This document shows positions 22,965 through 41,955 of a stretch of 64,000 nucleotides of DNA, in pieces. The stretch spans positions 1 to 64,000 of the forward strand of contig JAEUIH010000032.1 of assembly GCA_016795105.1 (NCBI GenBank), in the 5' to 3' direction. The stretch comes from Planctomyces sp. Lineage in GTDB: Bacteria; Planctomycetota; Planctomycetia; Planctomycetales; Planctomycetaceae. Position 1 is the stretch's first letter, and each line of letters opens with the position of its first letter. The position numbers and the translations under genes were made by a program. The notes below the pieces were generated by a model. That model ran no database searches, was not told the DNA's origin, and was given only the letters and a program-made list of their open reading frames with translations.

Positions 22965-24404
22965 CTAGAGTTCAGGTTCCGCATTCACAACTTCGGTCTT
23001 TCCTGCGTCTCCAGTCTCAGGATCTCCGGACTCAACATCGTCCGATTCGAGTTGCTGACCGGGGATCGGTTCACTGTCGCTGCCAGCCAGAGGCGGTTCC
23101 GGAACGACATATGTTCTGGTGACTCTGCTTGCCCCCGAAACACCTGTGATTTCAATTCCACCGATCGTCTGACCTGCCGAAATCAGCGGTATGTTGCCTG
23201 AACGCCCTGGCATCGGTGCCTTGTACCGCAACTTCTGGCCACCACCGGACACTTCGATGTATTCGAACTGTTCCTCGCATCGAATTGTGATCCTCGGTCC
23301 TTTCCCTGGCGTTCGATCAAGTCCAAGAATTTGCAGAGGATCAGACGCTGGTTCACTTAGCGGTTCACCCAAAGAAATGTCCCGCACAGCTTCCAGTTCG
23401 TCGGCACTACGATTTGAAGATTCTGCCTGAACACTCTCAAACTTGCTTCCGGAAGCGCTGCGATCTCTGCGGCCTGCCAGCTGTTCGGCTTTTTCTTTCG
23501 GTTCATCGGCTTCCTCAGACGTATCATCTTTTGACCTTCGTGGACTCTGACTCCGACGCTGACGTGGCTCTGAAAACTGGTCTTGAGTATCCAGCCCTGA
23601 GAACCCACGCAGACTGTCAGCGATCGGACTCGAGTATTGTCCTCCGGCACTTTGCCCCCCTGAACCACCGGAAGGAAATCCGTTCGACGGAAACCCCGAG
23701 CCCGAATTGAAGCCGGATCCCTGGGATTGTGGCCCAAAGGCGGATGGTGACCCAAACGCCGGAATTCCGCCCGATAACATACTCATAGGGTTCATCCCCG
23801 CGCCCAGCCCTGTAGGCAACCCCTGGCCTTCTGCTACTTCCGAACCTTCCGGCTGCAACACGGTTTCGGGATCACCGGAGCCCTGGGATTTCTTTTTGGC
23901 TTTACGTTTCTTCGCAGCTTTGGATGTCTTTGGTTCTGCTTCAGGATCATTTGGGTCCGGTTCCGGATCACCGCCCGCTACTGGTTCAGGTTCCGTACCG
24001 GTCACAGGTTCCTTTGTTGGGTCCGGACCGTTCACCGGAACCGGCTCCTGAGGCCCTCCGGTGCCAGGCTCCTGCGGTGCAGGATCAATGGGCTTCGAAC
24101 CTTCCACACTGTCAGCAGCCGCATGAAAACCAGAGTCCTGAGACTTATCTCCGTAGGGCTGCATCCCCGCTGGCGAAGTAGAAAATGGAACTGAACTCGT
24201 CGTACCCACAGAATTGCCGGACGCAGAGGCCAGTAATTCTGCGAACTTCTGCTGGCTCTGCTCCTGCATTAAGCGGCCGACGTTCAGCAATCCCACCAGG
24301 ATCACCGCTGCGACAGCAACAATGAGGGTGGACTGCAACGGGGCATTCCCAGGATTCGAATCGTGAAATCGCCGTATCTTCGCCTTTAGCCGACCGCCGA
24401 TCAT
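22965..24404 (-). CDS. Hypothetical membrane-anchored low-complexity (Pro/Gly/Ser/Glu-rich) protein, downstream of and co-directional with the Ser/Thr kinase
   Basis: A 479-aa ORF with N-terminal TM helix (LIVAVAAVILVGLL), a long disordered PEP/GSG-rich region and a C-terminal ~100 aa ordered segment. Confidence 0.5.
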   Translation of the reverse strand: MIGGRLKAKIRRFHDSNPGNAPLQSTLIVAVAAVILVGLLNVGRLMQEQSQQKFAELLASASGNSVGTTSSVPFSTSPAGMQPYGDKSQDSGFHAAADSVEGSKPIDPAPQEPGTGGPQEPVPVNGPDPTKEPVTGTEPEPVAGGDPEPDPNDPEAEPKTSKAAKKRKAKKKSQGSGDPETVLQPEGSEVAEGQGLPTGLGAGMNPMSMLSGGIPAFGSPSAFGPQSQGSGFNSGSGFPSNGFPSGGSGGQSAGGQYSSPIADSLRGFSGLDTQDQFSEPRQRRSQSPRRSKDDTSEEADEPKEKAEQLAGRRDRSASGSKFESVQAESSNRSADELEAVRDISLGEPLSEPASDPLQILGLDRTPGKGPRITIRCEEQFEYIEVSGGGQKLRYKAPMPGRSGNIPLISAGQTIGGIEITGVSGASRVTRTYVVPEPPLAGSDSEPIPGQQLESDDVESGDPETGDAGKTEVVNAEPEL

Positions 24405-24491: not shown

Positions 24492-27400
24492 CTATGGTGT
24501 ACTCGGGACAGCTTTCGGAACCGGAACTTCGGCCGCAGGTTCAGAAGTGACTTCGTCGGAACGGTCCTCGACAGCGATCAGCCGATGAACTGCGTCGATT
24601 GCCCGCTTCCGCCAGAATTCGGTTTGAACCACTCGTTCGGCAGATACTTCTGGCTGCTTCAGTATCTGATCTGCAAAATTGACTGCCTCGGTTTCGCGTC
24701 CGGCAACTGTGAGAGCCTTCAGTCGGAGATCATCCCAGGTTTGCTGTGCTTCCGGATACATCTGACTGGCTCGCTGAATCGCTATCAGGCTCGTCTCAAA
24801 CTCTCCACCTGCCAGAAGATTGTTTACCAGAAACGGAACTCGACCTCCATGGAAGTCTGACGCCACTGCCACCCATCGTTTTGCCGCGTCGGAAGACGCA
24901 CGAAGGTCAGACGGATCATCCGTCTGAGAATATTTGCCCGCATAACACATCGACAGACAGTAAAGGACCTCGGGCTTGACCTGTGAATAGATGGACGGCG
25001 CTCGCTCTGCTTCTTCCAACTCCGGAATGGCCTCCGCGAACTCTCCCTTCGGCAATCTTGTTACGGCTTTCAGAAAGGGGAATATCGCATCATTTTCAAA
25101 TGGTGACGCATCGGCCATTTCATCAAGCATGGTTCGAAACGGCCCACTTTGTCCAATCAGTAACATTGCTGACACAGCTGCAAATCGTCCGCCGAAGTAC
25201 ACAAGTTTTCCCGAAGTTGATGACTCAGAAACCACTCCCTGCATCCCAAGTCCGCGTCCAAGTTCTGACAGACCTTCATCGAGGAGTGAGTCGTCCTCAG
25301 AAAACGATTCCAGAATCCCACCAATTTCCCATGCAACCTTCAGGAATTCCATAGGTGCCAACGCACCTGTATCCCATTGCGTCAGTAGCATTGAAGTTCT
25401 GCTCATTAAATCGAACGTTGAGTTCAACCTGTTGATATCTCCCTCTGCCAGCATCCCTCGCAAACGTTCAAGCTGTGGCGCGATCTCATCTCTGCGACCC
25501 TCCAGAGTAAGAGACAGCGCCACCGCGACTTCAGTCTCCGGTTCCTGATCAACCAGCACCCGAACGAGTGCTGCCTGTTCCCGAACCTCAGCATGTCGTC
25601 CGTCAAACAATAAACAGGCCATCAACAGCTTCCTGGCCGAAACGGATCGTGGATATTTATCGAGCAGTTCTTCGAGAGCCGGGATTGCCTCGGCGCGTGA
25701 CGTCATCGTGAGTACCTTTGTCAGCAATCGGTACTCATCCGGCAAATGGTCGGCAAGTTCACTGCTCAACAACTCACTGGCGGATGCTCGTTCATCGATC
25801 AGTCCTGGACTCATTCTCACGAGCCAGAACTTCTCCAGAGCACGATGCTCCAGTGAGCGCGGCTTTACTGTCTTTAGCAATTCACGAGTCTCTGCAAACC
25901 GCTGCATTGAATATAGGGTCTCGATCCGGGCGAACTGGAGTGCACAACGACTGTCGTCATCCATCACATCCTGCTGCAACGCCTCATTCAGCGAATTGAG
26001 TTTCGCCTCAGTGGCATCTCTTCCCGTGTTCGACTTCCCAACAAGTTCCGACATGATTCGGTCGCGCTTCGCAGATTTCAGTTCGGCCTCAGTCGCTCGA
26101 TTCTTTTCTGCATCAATATCAGCCTTAAGCTGAAACTCCTTCTTTTCTGCGGCGTTTGCGGCCATCGCCAGATCTGAATTTGCCTTGACGATTCCGGCGA
26201 TCAGCAATCCGATGACTGCTGTAGTCACACCCATCACAGCGGTCACAAGCAGCTTGTTGCGAACTGTAAATCGGCTTGCAATGTACCAGGCGGATGGCTT
26301 GCGAGCGAGAATCGGAAGATGAACAAGATGCCTCCGGAGGTCCTCAGCAAACTCACCAACCGATTGATATCGCTGACCCACATCCTTCATCAGGCCTTTT
26401 GCCAGAATGAGATCCAGGTCTCCAGTCAATTCGCGGATGTATCCGGAAAGCTGATCCTGGGTCAGGCTGATTTTGGCGAGTGAATCAGGTTCCGGTTCCC
26501 GCAGTCGCGCACTCATCAGCGGCACGGATTCGTTCTGAATCACCCTGACCACTTCCGGAAGAGAAGCACCCCTAAGCTTCGAAAGGTCGAGTGTCGGCAT
26601 GCCGGTCAGCAACTCATACAGCACGGCAGCAAGTGAATAAACATCCGTTCGAGTATCCACCTGACCTGCGTTACCGCCAGCCTGTTCGGGACTCATATAA
26701 CGAATCGTTCCCAGAATCTGACCGGCTCCTGTTTCGTGAAATCGAGTCTGGTCATTCTCATCAATCAGCTTGGCCAGTCCAAAGTCGATCACTTTAACGG
26801 TGGGTCGTGTTCCTTCAGGACCCGGACTGACCAGAATATTCCCAGGCTTGATGTCGCGATGTAGAATGCCTCTCTGATGTGCATGCTGAATCGCATCGCA
26901 GATGGCGAGCACCAGGTTGATTCGATCGCGGAGTGTGCTTCGGAATTCCTGACAGTACTGCGTCACCGGCATTCCCTCGACGTACTCCATCACAAAGTAG
27001 GGATGTCCGTCCGGAGTCTGGCCGGCTTCCAGCAGGTGAGCGATGCACGGATGATTCATTTTCGCCAGTGACTGACGCTCCAGCTTAAACCGCTGAAGTG
27101 CTTCATCAGTGATCCTGGCCACCTGAATCATCTTGATGGCGACCTTACGACGAACCGGCTCCTTCTGCTCCGCGAGATAAACGGTTCCCATCCCGCCTTC
27201 GCCAATCTTGTTCTTCAGCTCGAACGGCCCAAGCCTGGCTCCTGATAAGCGAACGATGTCGATCCATGGAGACTCGGCGTCAAAGTCCTGTGCGATTGCT
27301 TCCCCAGTGGAAATGGTTCTTGTTCGACCTGACGAAGCGCCATCGGGCATCTGAGTTCGCTCAGTGGGAATCTCGTCCACTGGATCCGTGTCCTGATTGC

Positions 27401-27698
27401 AGTCCGAAGAATCCCGGATCGCAGGTGTCGCATAGCGGTTGATGCCAACAGGTAGAGTCGCCGGAACTACTTCATCACTCAGCCATTTCACGCACTGCCG
27501 GATAAACAGCGCCTGATCTTCTCGCTCCAGACTCCCAGCGAAATCCCGGAGCTGTTCGATCACTTTATCTCTGCCATTCACTCGACTTCCCCCCCACATG
27601 CACAAGCGTTGCGTTGACTCATAAAAAGGGGCCACTTCCTGCAGCATCCTTCGGTGACGAATTCTCTGCAGACTGACCACCAATGCACGCAAAAACAC
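24492..27698 (-). CDS. Serine/threonine protein kinase with a TM segment and a large C-terminal TPR-like repeat region
   Basis: Hanks kinase motifs: glycine loop GEGGMGTVYLA, VAIK, HRDIKPGNIL, DFGLA and SPEQ. A TM helix (LLVTAVMGVTTAVIGLLIAGIV) is followed by ~550 aa of helical repeats. The precise start is uncertain (GTG at 27698, or ATG at 27647 or 27599). Confidence 0.85.
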   Translation of the reverse strand: MFLRALVVSLQRIRHRRMLQEVAPFYESTQRLCMWGGSRVNGRDKVIEQLRDFAGSLEREDQALFIRQCVKWLSDEVVPATLPVGINRYATPAIRDSSDCNQDTDPVDEIPTERTQMPDGASSGRTRTISTGEAIAQDFDAESPWIDIVRLSGARLGPFELKNKIGEGGMGTVYLAEQKEPVRRKVAIKMIQVARITDEALQRFKLERQSLAKMNHPCIAHLLEAGQTPDGHPYFVMEYVEGMPVTQYCQEFRSTLRDRINLVLAICDAIQHAHQRGILHRDIKPGNILVSPGPEGTRPTVKVIDFGLAKLIDENDQTRFHETGAGQILGTIRYMSPEQAGGNAGQVDTRTDVYSLAAVLYELLTGMPTLDLSKLRGASLPEVVRVIQNESVPLMSARLREPEPDSLAKISLTQDQLSGYIRELTGDLDLILAKGLMKDVGQRYQSVGEFAEDLRRHLVHLPILARKPSAWYIASRFTVRNKLLVTAVMGVTTAVIGLLIAGIVKANSDLAMAANAAEKKEFQLKADIDAEKNRATEAELKSAKRDRIMSELVGKSNTGRDATEAKLNSLNEALQQDVMDDDSRCALQFARIETLYSMQRFAETRELLKTVKPRSLEHRALEKFWLVRMSPGLIDERASASELLSSELADHLPDEYRLLTKVLTMTSRAEAIPALEELLDKYPRSVSARKLLMACLLFDGRHAEVREQAALVRVLVDQEPETEVAVALSLTLEGRRDEIAPQLERLRGMLAEGDINRLNSTFDLMSRTSMLLTQWDTGALAPMEFLKVAWEIGGILESFSEDDSLLDEGLSELGRGLGMQGVVSESSTSGKLVYFGGRFAAVSAMLLIGQSGPFRTMLDEMADASPFENDAIFPFLKAVTRLPKGEFAEAIPELEEAERAPSIYSQVKPEVLYCLSMCYAGKYSQTDDPSDLRASSDAAKRWVAVASDFHGGRVPFLVNNLLAGGEFETSLIAIQRASQMYPEAQQTWDDLRLKALTVAGRETEAVNFADQILKQPEVSAERVVQTEFWRKRAIDAVHRLIAVEDRSDEVTSEPAAEVPVPKAVPSTP

Positions 27699-27876
27699 TG
27701 CAGAATTCGGTGCCAGGATCGAGATCGGGAGGCCTGAACGATTGAGAACAATCGTTCTGCTTTGGTGGGATTCAGCCGAATTCCCTGTCCGATTCGTGAG
27801 CCCCGCGTTGATCTTCCAGAAGGTGCCGCTGCGCGCGGCGTTTTTCGTTTTGAGACCTTCTGCAAAGGGGCAACCA

Positions 27877-29064
27877 ATGCATGTAAAACAAGCCCGAATT
27901 CGTCACCTCATTCGAGATCACCATGGTATGGAATCACTCCAGTCCGTGCTGATCCTCGCCGTCGCCGCGATGGTCCTCCTCGGACTGAAACTGTTGTGGA
28001 ATCCAGGATCGTCCGGGGGCGAGGGAATGATGGCTGGAGTCACTGAACTCTTTGAAACTATCTTCAATGGTGGCACTCCAACCGAAAACAACGGCGGCAC
28101 AGAAACCGGTGGGAACGGCAGCAATGGGGGTGGGGAGAACAATGGAACCGGAGGGGCTGGCGGCGGTGGAGAAAACAGCGGACCTGGCGGCCCCGGCGGG
28201 CCGGAGGGCCCCGGCGGTGAAGGTGGTCAAGGCGGTAACGAAGGAACTGGTAACGAAGGAACTGGGGGTGAAGGCAACGGAAGTGGTGACGGAACAGGGA
28301 CCGGAGAAGAAGGTGGACCAGACGGAGGCGACAAACCGGGTGATGACAAAAAGCCTGAAGATGATAAGAAACGCGATGACGGCAGAGTCGATCCTCTCGA
28401 CGCCGACTTTGCGAAGGCACTTGCCAAAGCCGTCGCCGAAAACGCAAAGGAAAAGCGACTCTCTGCCGTAGCCGGTCTGGTGACATCGGCAGAACAAAAT
28501 CTGGCGAAGTCCTCTGAAATCTATCGCGTAACAGAACTGGCAACAGAAGCGGCTCGCAACACGCCCGACCTTCCGTTGGCGGACAAAATCGCTATGGAAA
28601 ATCAGCTTTCAAAAACCCGCATTGATATGTTAAACGCTCGGATCGCCGTGGACGACGCGAAAGCCGGACTTGATTTTGTGAAGACTCAAACAGAACGATT
28701 CTCGCGGGCTGTTGGTGTCATGGGCGCGGTCGACACACTGATGGAAGCAGATCGAAAACGACAGGAACTCGTCGCAAACGGACAATATGCGGAAGCCTGG
28801 CGAGTGACTGTCGGCGGAACGACTCGCTACATCACGGAAGTTGCGACGTCATTCACAGATAAACTCCCTGGCGTCAAGGGGTCGCTCGCATCAGAAGTCT
28901 TTGCCGCCACAGCGGAAGTCGCTGGTCGGCAATTAGCCGACGATACGTTTCCCGCAATGGTGGATATCTCACACTGGCTCTACGAGAAGCCGTGGTGGCC
29001 AAAGAACCGCAGACCTCGATTCCCGCGAGGATACGATCCGGCGAATGATCCAACGCAGAAATGA
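27877..29064 (+). CDS. Flp-prepilin-like N-terminus fused to a long Gly/Glu-rich linker and a ~230-aa alpha-helical C-terminal domain (giant Flp-like pilin or minor pilin)
   Basis: The N-terminus ...IRDHHGMESLQSVLILAVAAMVLLGL parallels the small Flp pilin downstream (FHGEESGNEALQTVAVLATGAIVLVGLL). The ATG at 27877 has an AAGGGG Shine-Dalgarno. A low-complexity GGxGxE region spans roughly residues 95-190. Confidence 0.55.
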   Translation: MHVKQARIRHLIRDHHGMESLQSVLILAVAAMVLLGLKLLWNPGSSGGEGMMAGVTELFETIFNGGTPTENNGGTETGGNGSNGGGENNGTGGAGGGGENSGPGGPGGPEGPGGEGGQGGNEGTGNEGTGGEGNGSGDGTGTGEEGGPDGGDKPGDDKKPEDDKKRDDGRVDPLDADFAKALAKAVAENAKEKRLSAVAGLVTSAEQNLAKSSEIYRVTELATEAARNTPDLPLADKIAMENQLSKTRIDMLNARIAVDDAKAGLDFVKTQTERFSRAVGVMGAVDTLMEADRKRQELVANGQYAEAWRVTVGGTTRYITEVATSFTDKLPGVKGSLASEVFAATAEVAGRQLADDTFPAMVDISHWLYEKPWWPKNRRPRFPRGYDPANDPTQK

Positions 29065-29237
29065 TTGTGCGCGTATGGCGGACGGTACATGAAATGTGCC
29101 TGCTACTTTTTTTAAAAAACAATGTCTGGTTCTGAGCTCAAACGAACATCTGTTTAATGAAGGGGATGAGTCAAACATCCCGGAACAAAAGATCGAAAAT
29201 TGGTTTCCCTCAACTCAGTTCTTTGAAAGGAACTCAC

Positions 29238-29423
29238 ATGTCACGATTCGTACGATCTCTGGTCCGTTTCCATGGTGAAGAGTCCGGTAACGAAGCTCTG
29301 CAGACTGTTGCAGTACTCGCCACCGGAGCCATCGTTCTTGTCGGTCTGCTTGGTGTCTGGAACTCCGATGTTAAGACTGGCGTCGGATCACTCATCAAAG
29401 ATCTGTTCGGCACGAAAGGTTAG
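29238..29423 (+). CDS. flp: Flp/Fap family type IVb prepilin (61 aa)
   Basis: MSRFVRSLVRFHGEESGNEALQTVAVLATGAIVLVGLLGVW fits the Flp pattern F-x-x-D/E-E-S-G-x-x-A-I/L-E/Q-Y/T followed by a hydrophobic helix. AAGGA sits 8 nt upstream of the ATG, and the gene lies immediately upstream of the prepilin peptidase. Confidence 0.6.
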   Translation: MSRFVRSLVRFHGEESGNEALQTVAVLATGAIVLVGLLGVWNSDVKTGVGSLIKDLFGTKG

Positions 29424-29464: not shown

Positions 29465-29497
29465 CGCCCCGGCATCTCCCAATGCCGGGGCGGTTTT
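29465..29497 (+). terminator. Intrinsic terminator/attenuator hairpin after the flp pilin gene
   Basis: An 11-bp stem, CGCCCCGGCAT...ATGCCGGGGCG, encloses a 6-nt loop and is followed by GTTTTCGT. Confidence 0.55.
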
Positions 29498-39202: not shown

Positions 39203-40060
39203 ATGTCTGCTCATCAGCTCACTTCAGTCATTACTTCTTCGTGTCTCTTCTTTCTGGCTGGATTTATCGGCTGCAGTCAATTGCTGCGATTGTGGGACGA
39301 GTTTCTCACACAGAGCTTCAGTGGACCAGTCGCCCGATATCGGCAGCTGAGAATGGATGAACAACGCCTGGCGCACGGACTGAGGTTATGGTCTGTGTTA
39401 CTTGTTGCAGGAACAGCAGGCCTGATCCTGATTCAATCGTGGCCAATTGCTTTTCTTTATCCCTGTCTGATGGCCGTCGCTCCTCCATACGCCATTGAGT
39501 ACTTCATTCGACGCCGTGAACAGCTCCTGGAATCCCAGTTGATCGGTTCTTCGACAGGACTTGCTAATACGGTCAAAGCGGGACTCTCCATTCCCCAGGG
39601 GCTGAAGTCGGTCGCTGATGAGGCACCATTCCCACTGCGAACCGAACTCGATCAGATTGTTTACCAGTTTGATCATGGACGACCTCTGCAGGAGTCGCTG
39701 GCCGATGCGAGAAAGCGGCTGCAGCTGGAGTCATTCACTCTGTTCTGCCTCGCGCTTGAGGTCGCAGTGGAACGAGGTGGCCGGGTCAACATTACACTGG
39801 AACGTCTCAGTACGACATTGCAGGAGTGGTTCCGACTCCGCCGAAAACTCGATTCCGACACATCGGCCGGAAGATATGCAATTCTGATCATGGGATTCTG
39901 TCCCGCGGCATTTGTCCTGCTGTTTCTGGCGACCGGCATGAATGCAATTCTCTCACTTTTTACAGATTTGCGGGGACAGCTTGTCCTGTGTGCGATCATT
40001 CTGCTGATCTGTTTCGGTGTCCGCTGGGCCTGCCGAATCATGAACATCAAGCTCACCTGA
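39203..40060 (+). CDS. tadB: TadB-like type II secretion system F-family membrane protein
   Basis: Polytopic membrane protein with a T2SSF-like core (LPDALELLAxxxxAG-type motif: LFCLALEVAVERGGRVNITLERL). Its position after cpaF matches canonical Tad loci. Confidence 0.7.
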   Translation: MSAHQLTSVITSSCLFFLAGFIGCSQLLRLWDEFLTQSFSGPVARYRQLRMDEQRLAHGLRLWSVLLVAGTAGLILIQSWPIAFLYPCLMAVAPPYAIEYFIRRREQLLESQLIGSSTGLANTVKAGLSIPQGLKSVADEAPFPLRTELDQIVYQFDHGRPLQESLADARKRLQLESFTLFCLALEVAVERGGRVNITLERLSTTLQEWFRLRRKLDSDTSAGRYAILIMGFCPAAFVLLFLATGMNAILSLFTDLRGQLVLCAIILLICFGVRWACRIMNIKLT

Positions 40061-40078
40061 AACTGAGGACTCGAGGAA

Positions 40079-41044
40079 ATGTTTTCGTACTCGAATATGC
40101 TCATCACAAACCTGAGCTTCTCAGCGATCCCGCTGCACGAACTTCAGCAGGACTTTTCCCTGGGCGCGTCATTCCTGCTGGGAATATCTGTGTTCCTGCT
40201 GACCAGCCGCCTCGTTCTGATTGTTGACCGGCATGTCCGGACATTTGCTGAAGAATGGGAATTCGAACAGTCACGCCGTATTTCTCTTCGCAAAGGCAAC
40301 TCTGTTTACAGACTAACAGAACCTCTCATTGACGAACTCTGTGAGACTCGATTTGTCCAGCGGCTCGAAACACCGATCATCGAGCTTTCTCTGAGTCGAG
40401 GTGGAGACCCGCTTCCATGGAAACCACGAGAATTTGTGGCGGTGTCTCTGATGGAAGCACTCATACTCTGTCTTGCACTCATACTTATCAGCAGTGGTCT
40501 GTTGCCAATCACACACAGTCTTCTGATTGGAATGACTCTGGCAGTCATCTATTTCCGGGCGGCGATCAAGGCGATTCGGCGTAAGGCCGAGGAGCGAGTT
40601 CAACAGATCGAGCGGCGATTACCGTTTGGTATCGACCTCGTTGCCCTGATGATGCGAGCAGGGGCAGGATTCCGAGACGCACTTCAGACCGTGATTTCCG
40701 AGAGCCAGCCTCACCCGTTTGCTGTCGAATTACAAAGAGTACTCGATGATGTAAACCGAGGTAAAACACTCAGGACGTCTCTCGAAGAATTCAGCAACCG
40801 CCTGCGTTCTGACGATCTGCGGGAGATGGTGTTTGCGATTCAGAAATCAGAAGAACTTGGAACCCCTCTGGCTGACATATTTACCAACCTTGCTGATCAA
40901 ATGCGGTTGAGAAAATCTCAATGGGCAGAAGCAACAGCCGGGAAAGCGCAGATCCGCATGCAGGGGCCTCAATTCGTAATGATGGCTGCCTGCATGATCA
41001 CGATTCTAACCCCGTTTTTGTTCGAGATGATTACGAACTGGTGA
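40079..41044 (+). CDS. tadC: TadC-like type II secretion system F-family membrane protein
   Basis: The T2SSF domain is indicated by LPFGIDLVALMMRAGAGFRDALQTV...MVFAIQKSEELGTPLADIF, and this is the second F-family gene after tadB. Confidence 0.7.
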   Translation: MFSYSNMLITNLSFSAIPLHELQQDFSLGASFLLGISVFLLTSRLVLIVDRHVRTFAEEWEFEQSRRISLRKGNSVYRLTEPLIDELCETRFVQRLETPIIELSLSRGGDPLPWKPREFVAVSLMEALILCLALILISSGLLPITHSLLIGMTLAVIYFRAAIKAIRRKAEERVQQIERRLPFGIDLVALMMRAGAGFRDALQTVISESQPHPFAVELQRVLDDVNRGKTLRTSLEEFSNRLRSDDLREMVFAIQKSEELGTPLADIFTNLADQMRLRKSQWAEATAGKAQIRMQGPQFVMMAACMITILTPFLFEMITNW

Positions 41045-41052
41045 ATCACTCT

Positions 41053-41955
41053 ATGAAAGGCGCAGCTATGCAGTACATCCTCTCTATCGAAGCTCGGGGA
41101 AGTTCACCTGTGACCTGTCCACTGAGTCAGGACGTGTATCGAATCGGCTCGGGCTCTGCCTGCCAGATTCGAATTGCCACAAAATCTGATCACGCATTAA
41201 CACTCTTCCGTCGGGGACCAGCGTTCTTTGCGCTGAATCGAACGTCTGAGACTTTAAGAATTGGCAACGATCAGTTCGCTCCGAACAGCACTATGCCCTG
41301 GGCTCCTGGCCGTCGTCTTCAGCTTGAAGGAACGACGCTGAGGCTTGAAGCCGCAATTCCCGAACAAGTGGCCACTCGAATGGTCTACTCTCGCGCAATC
41401 GAACCCGACACATCCGAAAAACGCCTCAACTCTCAGGCGACTGTCCCCGCAACAACTGCAAATGTGTCGGGTTCAAAACCCGCAAATATGTCGGGTTCAA
41501 AACCCGCAAATATGTCGGGTTCGAAACTCGCAAATATGTCAGGTTCGAAACCCGCAAATATGCCAGGTTCGAAAACCACTGCCAAAAAGCGGCGGTCGAT
41601 GTTGACGACAATTGTGATGTGCGTAGTCACGGTCGTAACAATGCACTTCATTGCGGGAGTTGCCGCAGAACTTCAGACACGGAGAAAGGCAGAACTGCAG
41701 TCAATCGCTTGTGAAATCCAGCAAATCGTCCGAACAGAGGAACCGAAATCAGCCGTGCAACTCCGAAATCTGGCGTTGCTGAGCCTCGTCTCACGCCTGC
41801 AGTTCGCGGACGCTCTCGATGAAACCGCGAACAGAGACTCTGCAAAGTTCGAGATTCGAATCTTCTGCGAAAGTCTGCAGAATAGTTCTCACAGCACTCC
41901 AGCCGAACTAAAAATTGCGGATGAACTCATTCGCTGGATCAATCCCTCGGAGTAA
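41053..41955 (+). CDS. FHA-like domain membrane protein with a 5x SGSKPANM tandem repeat
   Basis: The N-terminal VYRIGSGSACQIRIATKSDHALTLFRRGPAFFALN resembles an FHA beta-sandwich. A TM helix (MLTTIVMCVVTVVTMHFIAGV) lies in the middle, and a 24-bp DNA repeat occurs 5 times in the coding sequence. Confidence 0.55.
   Translation: MKGAAMQYILSIEARGSSPVTCPLSQDVYRIGSGSACQIRIATKSDHALTLFRRGPAFFALNRTSETLRIGNDQFAPNSTMPWAPGRRLQLEGTTLRLEAAIPEQVATRMVYSRAIEPDTSEKRLNSQATVPATTANVSGSKPANMSGSKPANMSGSKLANMSGSKPANMPGSKTTAKKRRSMLTTIVMCVVTVVTMHFIAGVAAELQTRRKAELQSIACEIQQIVRTEEPKSAVQLRNLALLSLVSRLQFADALDETANRDSAKFEIRIFCESLQNSSHSTPAELKIADELIRWINPSE
41464..41577 (+). repeat. Coding tandem repeat, ~4.7 copies of a 24-bp unit (ATGTCGGGTTCAAAACCCGCAAAT) encoding MSGSKPAN
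   Basis: Direct reading of the sequence shows copies differing by 1-3 nt. Confidence 0.8.

Follow-up and report, generated by a model that had tools for sequence, protein, structure and literature searches.

Locus and architecture of the giant protein

The subject of this analysis is a 64,000-nucleotide stretch of DNA from Planctomyces sp. (assembly GCA_016795105.1, contig JAEUIH010000032.1, positions 1 to 64,000), referred to below as the window, and within it a single open reading frame (ORF) on the forward strand at 27877-29064. The frame opens with ATG at 27877, closes with a stop codon at 29062-29064 and encodes a protein of 395 amino acids (aa), here termed the giant protein. A leader and a module resembling small pilins of the Flp type are joined in it, through a long linker, to a helical C-terminal domain (C-domain) that is shared with PAAR proteins of type VI secretion systems (T6SS). 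The frame and its length had been read correctly in a preliminary description made from the sequence, and the good Shine-Dalgarno sequence claimed there is likewise present, as listed with the four parts of the protein.

27864..27870, forward strand: Shine-Dalgarno-like AAAGGGG, 6 nt 5' of the ATG, by direct reading of the sequence
27877..27927, forward strand: basic leader of 17 aa, MHVKQARIRHLIRDHHG, with Gly17 as its last residue and a putative prepilin-peptidase cleavage site after Gly17
27928..28074, forward strand: Flp-like module of 49 aa, MESLQSVLILAVAAMVLLGLKLLWNPGSSGGEGMMAGVTELFETIFNGG, with a hydrophobic helix and, after it, a short amphipathic one that has NGG at its end
28075..28407, forward strand: linker of 111 aa (aa 67-177), acidic, disordered, rich in Gly, Glu, Asp, Asn, Pro and Thr, with short tandem repeats in the DNA
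28408..29061, forward strand: all-helical C-domain of 218 aa with the conserved tail HWLYEKPWWPKNRRPRFPRGYDP at its end; no Pfam family; common to VgrG-linked PAAR proteins

The product is identical to P0001, the unannotated "hypothetical protein JNL58_17115" of a Planctomyces sp. metagenome-assembled genome (P-numbers denote homologous proteins and L-numbers their loci, P0001 being the protein of the window). Its N-terminus reads MHVKQARIRHLIRDHHG/MESLQSVLILAVAAMVLLGLKLLWN, where the slash marks, here and below, the putative cleavage point. The net charge is +3 in the leader, -3 in the module and -17 in the linker. The linker, described beforehand as about 100 aa rich in Gly, Glu and Asn, measures 111 aa, of which 40% are Gly, 11% Glu, 11% Asp and 9% Asn, and it is unstructured in the AlphaFold model. 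At the C-terminus an alpha-helical domain of about 230 aa had been expected, which agrees well with the 218 aa of entirely helical structure predicted there. The search for the same fusion in other organisms, proposed at the outset, was also productive: the four-part architecture is found in eight homologs with identities down to 37%, the module always being 49 aa and the C-domain 214-218 aa in length. Compared with this fixed module, the linker is variable: in close homologs it measures between 61 and 119 aa. The architecture is preserved in homologs to about 24% identity.

It had also been considered that translation might begin downstream of the Flp-like segment, which would then not be translated at all; alternatively, two genes could have been joined by an assembly or frameshift error. 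Some gene calls have the appearance that such an artefact would produce, since P0004 was begun at an internal Met and P0008 inside the helix. However, the leader and its Gly are kept in homologs that have no Met after the Gly (P0005, ...RPKG/IAAIQSV; P0007, ...RRAG/ETAVQSV), and in L004, the locus of P0004, an in-frame upstream ATG recovers MKAKLRLRQLTSNDRG/METLPSV. Because the leader and Gly are conserved without an internal Met and the upstream ATG of L004 restores the leader, the upstream start, ATG 27877, is by comparison of the homologs the correct one. Moreover, 27877-29064 reads through with no stop codon and no change of frame, and no fewer than 14 representatives, independent of one another and taken from different samples, have leader, Gly, helix, linker and C-domain in one contiguous frame. 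An artefact of either kind is therefore extremely improbable, and was rejected on the basis of the homolog frames, the conserved leader and Gly, and the upstream ATG of L004.

The C-domain and its other carriers

An AlphaFold model of the C-domain, built from a 21-sequence alignment (pLDDT 80.6), comprises four helices, two of which pair as a long hairpin while the others are shorter, and a tail in extended conformation. A Pfam scan of 21 diverse members assigned the domain to no family, and Foldseek returned nothing at E ≤ 0.001, hence no specific structural relative. Neither a segment of transmembrane grade nor conserved residues of a catalytic type were found in it. Conservation is highest in the tail, HWLYxxxWWPKNRxPRFP, which, being aromatic, basic and proline-rich, looks like a binding motif.

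The distribution of the domain was obtained by an exhaustive HMMER search with its profile against 1.84 billion representatives (E ≤ 0.001), from which 36 proteins were recovered and about 30 inspected. Among those inspected, about 14 have the same Gly-plus-helix N-terminus as the giant protein, two of them with the canonical G/xxxxE (P0036, RKG/EISVES; P0048, RNG/TVSIEA), three carry Sec-type signal peptides, and about nine are without a hydrophobic N-terminus. In three proteins the domain stands at the extreme C-terminus of a PAAR or PAAR-like protein, namely P0019 (PF13665, Tox-PAAR-like, E 6e-24), P0038 (PF05488, PAAR, E 5e-17) and P0042 (PF05488, PAAR, E 8e-8). A VgrG gene is located directly 5' of all three PAAR-type genes, and that of P0019 is also preceded by a DUF2169 adaptor gene. 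Between the C-domain of the window and the C-terminus of P0019 the identity is 36% over 169 aa (E 8e-32), and the alignment reaches the last residues of P0019. With the same domain, a scan of species-representative genomes gave no match, a metagenome scan gave two loci, one of which was already known, and a word-indexed search with a broad C-domain alignment gave 15 proteins only.

The combination of one cargo domain with several different export modules is a hallmark of polymorphic effectors, and in T6SS the C-terminal extensions of VgrG-adjacent PAAR proteins are delivered cargo rather than adhesins. Since one C-terminal domain is joined here to several alternative export or delivery modules, the C-domain appears to behave like polymorphic effector cargo. 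The sharing of this domain with PAAR proteins is the main new result. It makes a pilus-anchored effector, one of the roles offered in the preliminary description, the best-supported reading of the sequences: the recurrence of the C-domain at the C-termini of VgrG-linked PAAR proteins provides independent support for it, while the search for an immunity gene, reported in the Discussion, was negative.

In a further carrier, P0024 (217 aa), the final ~125 aa of the C-domain are preceded by sequence, …LCAGLYPAWLITRASPIDALRD, that on inspection looks like the end of a permease of the FtsX/MacB type. The fusion may be real, or the protein may be a chimera created in assembly.

The tad locus and its conservation

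Downstream of the giant gene, the window contains genes for small pilins, a prepilin peptidase, minor pilins and the assembly machinery of a Tad pilus.

29238..29423, forward strand: 61-aa Flp-like small pilin, ...FHGEESG/NEALQTVAVLATGAIVLVGLLGVWN (EESG/NEALQTV), without Glu5/Tyr6 and without a Pfam hit
29465..29492, forward strand: strong terminator-like hairpin, an 11-bp stem with 9 GC pairs followed by a T run, between the genes of the 61-aa pilin and the peptidase
29516..30172, forward strand: A24 prepilin peptidase of TadV/CpaA type, 218 aa (PF01478, E 3.6e-13), with the Asp motifs TD...IPN and GAGDVKL
30169..30375, forward strand: 68-aa small pilin-like protein with canonical G/FAAKE, from its translation
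30387..33829, forward strand: TadE-like (249 aa), TadG-like (605 aa) and second TadE-like (278 aa, G/TVQME) proteins, N-terminal motifs from the translations
37301..39175, forward strand: CpaF-type ATPase with an N-terminal FHA domain (T2SSE, E 3.2e-57; FHA, 27.1 bits against a cut-off of 20.7)
39200..41044, forward strand: two T2SSF (TadB/TadC) platform proteins (E 2e-17 and 3e-17)

The peptidase gene is situated 450 bp 3' of the giant gene. Among the three genes at 30387-33829, a weak match to PF07811 was obtained (E 0.005, under the gathering score), and Pfam identified none of the window ORFs scanned as a secretin. Terminator-like hairpins such as that after the 61-aa pilin gene often follow major pilin genes with high expression. 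The hairpin after the giant gene, at 29084-29100, is weaker.

Ten loci were examined. In eight of them (the window, L004, L001/L002, L007, L019, L020, L021 and L022) the giant gene is linked to tad genes, comprising the A24 peptidase, small pilins, TadE/TadG-like proteins, CpaF and TadB/C; the uninformative two are L008, a short contig, and the contig of P0049. In L004 and L021 the order is giant gene, small pilin, A24 peptidase, small pilin, TadE-like and TadG-like gene. The same order is observed in L007, with a homolog of the 479-aa protein described below divergent from the giant gene. In L001/L002, a 506-aa homolog of that protein is followed by the giant gene, divergent from the pilin-peptidase operon. 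In L019, from a metagenome-assembled genome of Pirellulaceae (24% identity), and in L020 the giant gene is located inside the minor-pilin operon, and in L022 it adjoins the two T2SSF genes. The TadE/TadG/TadE-like gene order of the window is also present in L001, L004, L019 and L021.

Two kinds of small pilin are encoded at the locus, the 61-aa protein before the peptidase (G/NEALQT) and the 68-aa protein after it (G/FAAKE). Equivalents of the latter are found in L019 (G/IAAIE), L020 (G/SASVE) and L021 (G/MMSME), and the pairing of a small pilin without Glu5 and a canonical one recurs in these three loci. Flp-like pilins without Glu5 would be unusual for bacteria (PMC10710030).

The Flp-like module

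In a single BLASTP comparison, the first 68 aa of the giant protein and the 61-aa protein of ORF 29238-29423 are 40% identical across 57 aa (E 1e-10), the putative cleavage-site Gly included. The match runs through the leader and both helices, the hydrophobic one and the second, so that the giant protein contains a counterpart of the entire small protein and not just of a transmembrane segment. The N-terminal resemblance, which the preliminary description had expressed as a leader and helix motif common to both, is by this alignment a real one. The leader ends in Gly and is followed by a hydrophobic alpha1N helix of ~20 aa, MHVKQARIRHLIRDHHG/MESLQSVLILAVAAMVLLGL. Furthermore, the Gly before the helix is the sole invariant column in 27 aligned modules.

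A profile comparison with hhalign was made against a Flp reference alignment made up of Caulobacter PilA, whose sequence was checked with PDB 8u1k, and four plasmid genes that bear the annotation "Flp family type IVb pilin", with 100 column-shuffled alignments (score 8.5 ± 2.1, maximum 16.3) and TatA as controls. All modules together reach a score of 30.2 (88% probability) against this reference, while the 61-aa family alone reaches 34.4 (91.5% probability) against 10.4 with TatA. In every comparison the invariant Gly is placed on the known cleavage Gly, ESG/ATAIEY, of real Flp pilins. With regard to the other Tad pilin classes, the giant protein was not matched by the TadE/Tad family hidden Markov models (HMMs) PF07811 and PF13400 at E ≤ 1, and a motif of the G/FTLIE type is not present in it by inspection. 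Nor did the 61-aa and 479-aa proteins (Pfam, NCBIfam) or the 27 modules (Pfam) yield a TadE or Tad match.

A third protein with this N-terminus, overlooked in the preliminary description, is encoded by the window on the opposite strand.

22965..24404, reverse strand: second Flp-module fusion of 479 aa, leader ...FHDSNPG/NAPLQSTLIVAVAAVILVGLL

Its module is followed by a Pro/Gly/Ser-rich low-complexity stretch of ~300 aa and a small conserved C-terminal domain, ...ITIRCEEQFEYIEVSGGGQKLRYKAPMPG..., and it matches the 61-aa protein with 42% identity over 38 aa (E 4e-10). Since its homologs of 506 aa (L001) and 431 aa (L007) adjoin the giant gene, the two fusions form a conserved pair.

Discussion

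From the observed architecture of the giant protein, its conservation, its linkage to tad genes and the occurrence of its C-domain on PAAR proteins, we infer a modular Flp-type (type IVc, Tad) pilin that would display or deliver an effector-like module on a Tad pilus similar to the Kil pilus of Myxococcus. The chances that this reading is correct appear to us about evenly balanced. According to it, the leader would stay in the cytoplasm while the hydrophobic helix inserts into the inner membrane with the N-terminus inside and the C-terminus outside (N-in/C-out). The adjacent A24 peptidase of TadV type would cleave after Gly17, and the machine of FHA-CpaF, TadB and TadC would then incorporate the 49-aa module in a filament of the 61-aa and 68-aa small pilins or add it at the filament's end. 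The 111-aa acidic linker could let the 218-aa C-domain swing tens of nanometres off the fibre. In Tad pili the pilin's C-terminal end forms the surface of the filament and normally no C-terminal domain is present (PMC10710030), which makes a C-terminal tether sterically plausible; because that end lies on the surface, the linker would free the C-domain from the fibre. The C-domain is presumed to be effector-like cargo because the same domain is found at the C-terminus of VgrG-associated PAAR spike proteins, and it would most likely act by binding or perturbing the envelope of another cell in a non-catalytic manner.

The proposed protein can be compared with four known systems. With the major pilins of Flp/Tad type, exemplified by PilA of Caulobacter crescentus (PDB 8u1k; PF04964), it shares the basic leader up to Gly, the hydrophobic helix of ~20 aa and the short second helix, as well as a gene position near a TadV-type A24 peptidase, CpaF, TadB/C and TadE/G-like genes. 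Those pilins are fully helical, measure about 40-80 aa and are without a C-terminal domain (PMC10710030, PMC12075869), whereas the giant protein reaches 395 aa with its linker and 218-aa domain, so that only its first 66 aa are Flp-like. They are further distinguished by Glu5/Tyr6 and membership of PF04964, in place of which the giant protein has Gln5/Ser6 and no match to that family. Modular type IV pilins are well established from PilB (vWA) and PilC (lectin) of Streptococcus sanguinis (Raynaud et al. 2021, PMC8179133). They too consist of an N-terminal pilin module, a linker and a grafted C-terminal module that is also found in non-pilin proteins, and the expectation is that the filament presents them, probably at its tip (PMC8179133). 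They are, however, of the T4a type, with an IPR012902 class III signal peptide, a globular pilin fold and a short loop as linker, in contrast to the Flp-type module, the very long disordered linker and the T6SS-spike-associated C-terminal module of the giant protein. Flp-type pilins are absent from the survey of modular pilins (PMC8179133).

In Myxococcus, contact killing is mediated by the Kil Tad pili, whose tip domains are variable (PMC12075869, PMC8460266); the toxin is still unknown (PMC8460266). Like the giant protein, the components of the Kil tip complexes (KilN/TadG-type; Herrou et al. 2025, PMC12075869) are Tad pilin-like and bear variable C-terminal domains proposed to meet other cells. 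Moreover, the CpaF ATPase of the Kil locus is fused to FHA (PMC8460266), as in the window, which also encodes TadE/TadG-like genes. KilL/M/N are homologs of TadE/F/G, have a pilin fold of the beta-stranded kind and lack a long linker (PMC12075869), whereas the giant protein has a Flp module, matches neither PF07811 nor PF13400, and carries an all-helical C-domain that recurs on PAAR proteins. The specialised ("evolved") T6SS effectors with PAAR or PAAR-like (PF13665) domains resemble it in the C-domain homologs that three of them have at the extreme C-terminus. They differ from it in that it has no PAAR domain and no T6SS context; an adjacent immunity gene was found in neither. In the literature, which was searched incompletely, no paper was found on a Flp module fused to a large domain or on a pilin sharing a domain with PAAR effectors.

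Several observations weigh against the proposed pilin with effector-like cargo. No match to PF04964 or NCBIfam models was obtained at E ≤ 1 for the giant, 61-aa or 479-aa protein, so that the outcome which the preliminary description had named as refuting its claim, a lack of Flp_Fap HMM support, is formally the one obtained, and a PF04964 scan of the 27 related modules gave none at E ≤ 10. A search of PDB sequences with the module profile did not recover Caulobacter PilA, the top hit being TatA (E 0.076). In hhalign, the giant modules alone score 23.7 against the Flp reference (49% probability), above the shuffled maximum but equal to their score of 23.7 against TatA. Only half of the Flp motif G/XXXXEY is present: the Gly is there, but positions 5 and 6 are Gln/Ser in the giant protein and Gln/Thr in its 61-aa neighbour, and among related proteins Glu5 occurs only in a few distant members (P0036, P0048). 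Tyr6, which is missing here, is described as conserved throughout Tad pili (PMC10710030). The mean identity of the giant module to the small pilin of its own locus is 0.39 and to those of other loci 0.28, with mixed ranks and with phylogeny as a confounder. All of the evidence is moreover computational and drawn from metagenome assemblies. The Flp-prepilin-type N-terminus claimed at the outset consequently stands as a copy of the neighbouring small pilin-like protein, leader included, and fails on the family HMM and on Glu5/Tyr6. Its cleavage context stands likewise in the invariant Gly, aligned to the cleavage Gly of Flp pilins, and is incomplete in the two residues that should follow. Because the module alone scores equally against TatA, the assignment of the giant protein to the Flp class is made by transitivity through the 61-aa neighbour and by genomic context. 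It is thus an indirect and provisional assignment, which rests on the similarity to that neighbour, the invariant Gly, the N-in/C-out topology implied by charge, and the context.

The immunity genes that would accompany a toxin are also lacking. No ORF, and so no immunity-like gene, is present in the intergenic regions flanking the giant gene in the window, and none follows the three PAAR homologs, whose genes are succeeded by those for an M28 peptidase on the opposite strand (L013), a kinase (L015) and a PPDK-like protein (L017). The lack of an immunity gene is unusual for antibacterial toxins. As immunity genes were found neither in the window nor after the PAAR homologs, a classical antibacterial toxin is not established; the C-domain could be a binding or membrane-active module, or it could be aimed at cells unlike the producer.

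In two loci in which the small pilin is not downstream, a conserved hydrophobic ORF of 68-69 aa (…GGVAFVAAMMAVVLVFPFAFI…) follows the giant gene (L001, 11631-11840; L008, 1611-1817). It is a possible partner or immunity candidate. No homolog of it was found in the window, where the best tblastn match (E 0.018) falls within the peptidase gene.

The likeness of the module to TatA was considered separately. Over 28 aa, GMESLQSVLILAVAAMVLLGLKLLWNPG (window 27928-28010), the module is 39% identical to the N-terminus of E. coli TatA (PDB 2lzs). Proteins of the TatA/E type have a transmembrane helix at the very N-terminus with the N-terminus outside (N-out), a conserved FG hinge and a gene in a tat context. 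Here, a 17-aa basic leader precedes the helix and acidic sequence follows it. Because the leader is basic and both module and linker are acidic, the predicted topology is N-in/C-out, opposite to that of TatA, and the context is tad and not tat. The identification as TatA/E was rejected for these reasons. Although the score equals that against Flp, the likeness is judged to be a convergence between two pairs of a transmembrane and an amphipathic helix.

The same deficits would suit a protein that is no subunit of the filament but belongs to the Tad machinery or its regulation and is bitopic in the inner membrane. In such a protein the Flp-like segment, cleaved or not, would serve only as an anchor, the linker would span the periplasm and the C-domain would work in the producer's own envelope, for example on the wall, the outer membrane or the secretin. 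We regard such a protein as unlikely, yet it would accommodate the missing Flp HMM match and Glu5/Tyr6, the equal score against TatA, the failure to find an immunity gene, and a C-domain whose best-conserved part is a tail of binding-motif character; the position of the giant gene among assembly genes in L019 to L022 would also be natural for it. It leaves unexplained, however, the invariant Gly, the basic leader and the fixed 49-aa module with its second helix, and an anchor of TatA kind would have the topology opposite to that implied by the charges. It is also difficult to reconcile with a C-domain that is found on VgrG-linked PAAR proteins and on Sec-exported proteins, outside any Tad machine. 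This last observation bears equally on the possibility of a modular minor pilin on the model of S. sanguinis PilB, with the C-domain solely an adhesin or receptor-binding module and no toxic action. Modular pilins and Tad pili most commonly serve in adhesion (PMC8179133, PMC10710030), and neither the absence of catalytic residues in the C-domain nor that of an immunity gene would then be surprising. However, the extensions that VgrG-adjacent PAAR proteins bear at the C-terminus are delivered cargo, and three such fusions carry the C-domain, for which reason a purely adhesive pilin is considered rather improbable.

Tad/Flp pilins have been defined by having no C-terminal domain, and the functional specialisation of Tad pili is currently credited to tip complexes of the TadE/F/G type. 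If the pilin with effector-like cargo is confirmed, a conserved family combining a Flp module with T6SS cargo would extend the principle of modular pilins to type IVc pili, and Tad and T6SS, two contact-dependent machines, would be linked by a common cargo. More tentatively, and in our opinion with a fairly low probability, the Flp module may be a trafficking and display domain for polymorphic effectors, planctomycete Kil-like Tad pili, in which the ATPase is fused to FHA and Ser/Thr kinases are encoded nearby, acting as extendable harpoons with tethered cargo as on PAAR spikes. Such harpoons would represent a previously unrecognised route of contact-dependent effector delivery and would supply a definite class of candidates for the toxin, as yet unknown, with which Tad-based systems kill. 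The finding thus bears on how Tad-like systems, the Myxococcus Kil system included, harm or recognise other cells (PMC8460266). The C-domain itself is newly defined, as an uncharacterised domain of about 36 representative clusters with the distinctive HWLYxxxWWPKNRxPRFP tail.

Other features of the locus

Further genes lie upstream of the giant gene and within the tad locus.

24492..27698, reverse strand: Ser/Thr protein kinase of 1068 aa (PF00069, E 1.2e-41), divergent from the giant gene
33834-34553 and 34519-35283, reverse strand: two tandem, paralogous sigma factors of extracytoplasmic function (ECF) type within the tad locus; the ORFs as listed overlap by 35 bp

Most loci (the window, L001, L020, L021, L022) have Ser/Thr kinases adjoining the giant gene or a homolog of it, and in L015 one directly follows the PAAR homolog. 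Because kinases adjoin the giant loci and the CpaF ATPase has an FHA domain, the arrangement suggests, by analogy with the PpkA/Fha pathway of T6SS and as proposed for Myxococcus Kil, that the pilus may be under the control of threonine phosphorylation. An ECF sigma factor is also present near the giant gene in L001, L008 and L020.

At the end of the tad locus, the ORF at 40921-41955 (forward strand) contains a 24-bp tandem repeat at 41458-41577 (5.0 copies, 91% matches). The N-terminal part of its product looks FHA-like by eye, with no match in Pfam, and the tandem repeat encodes SGSKPANM repeats.

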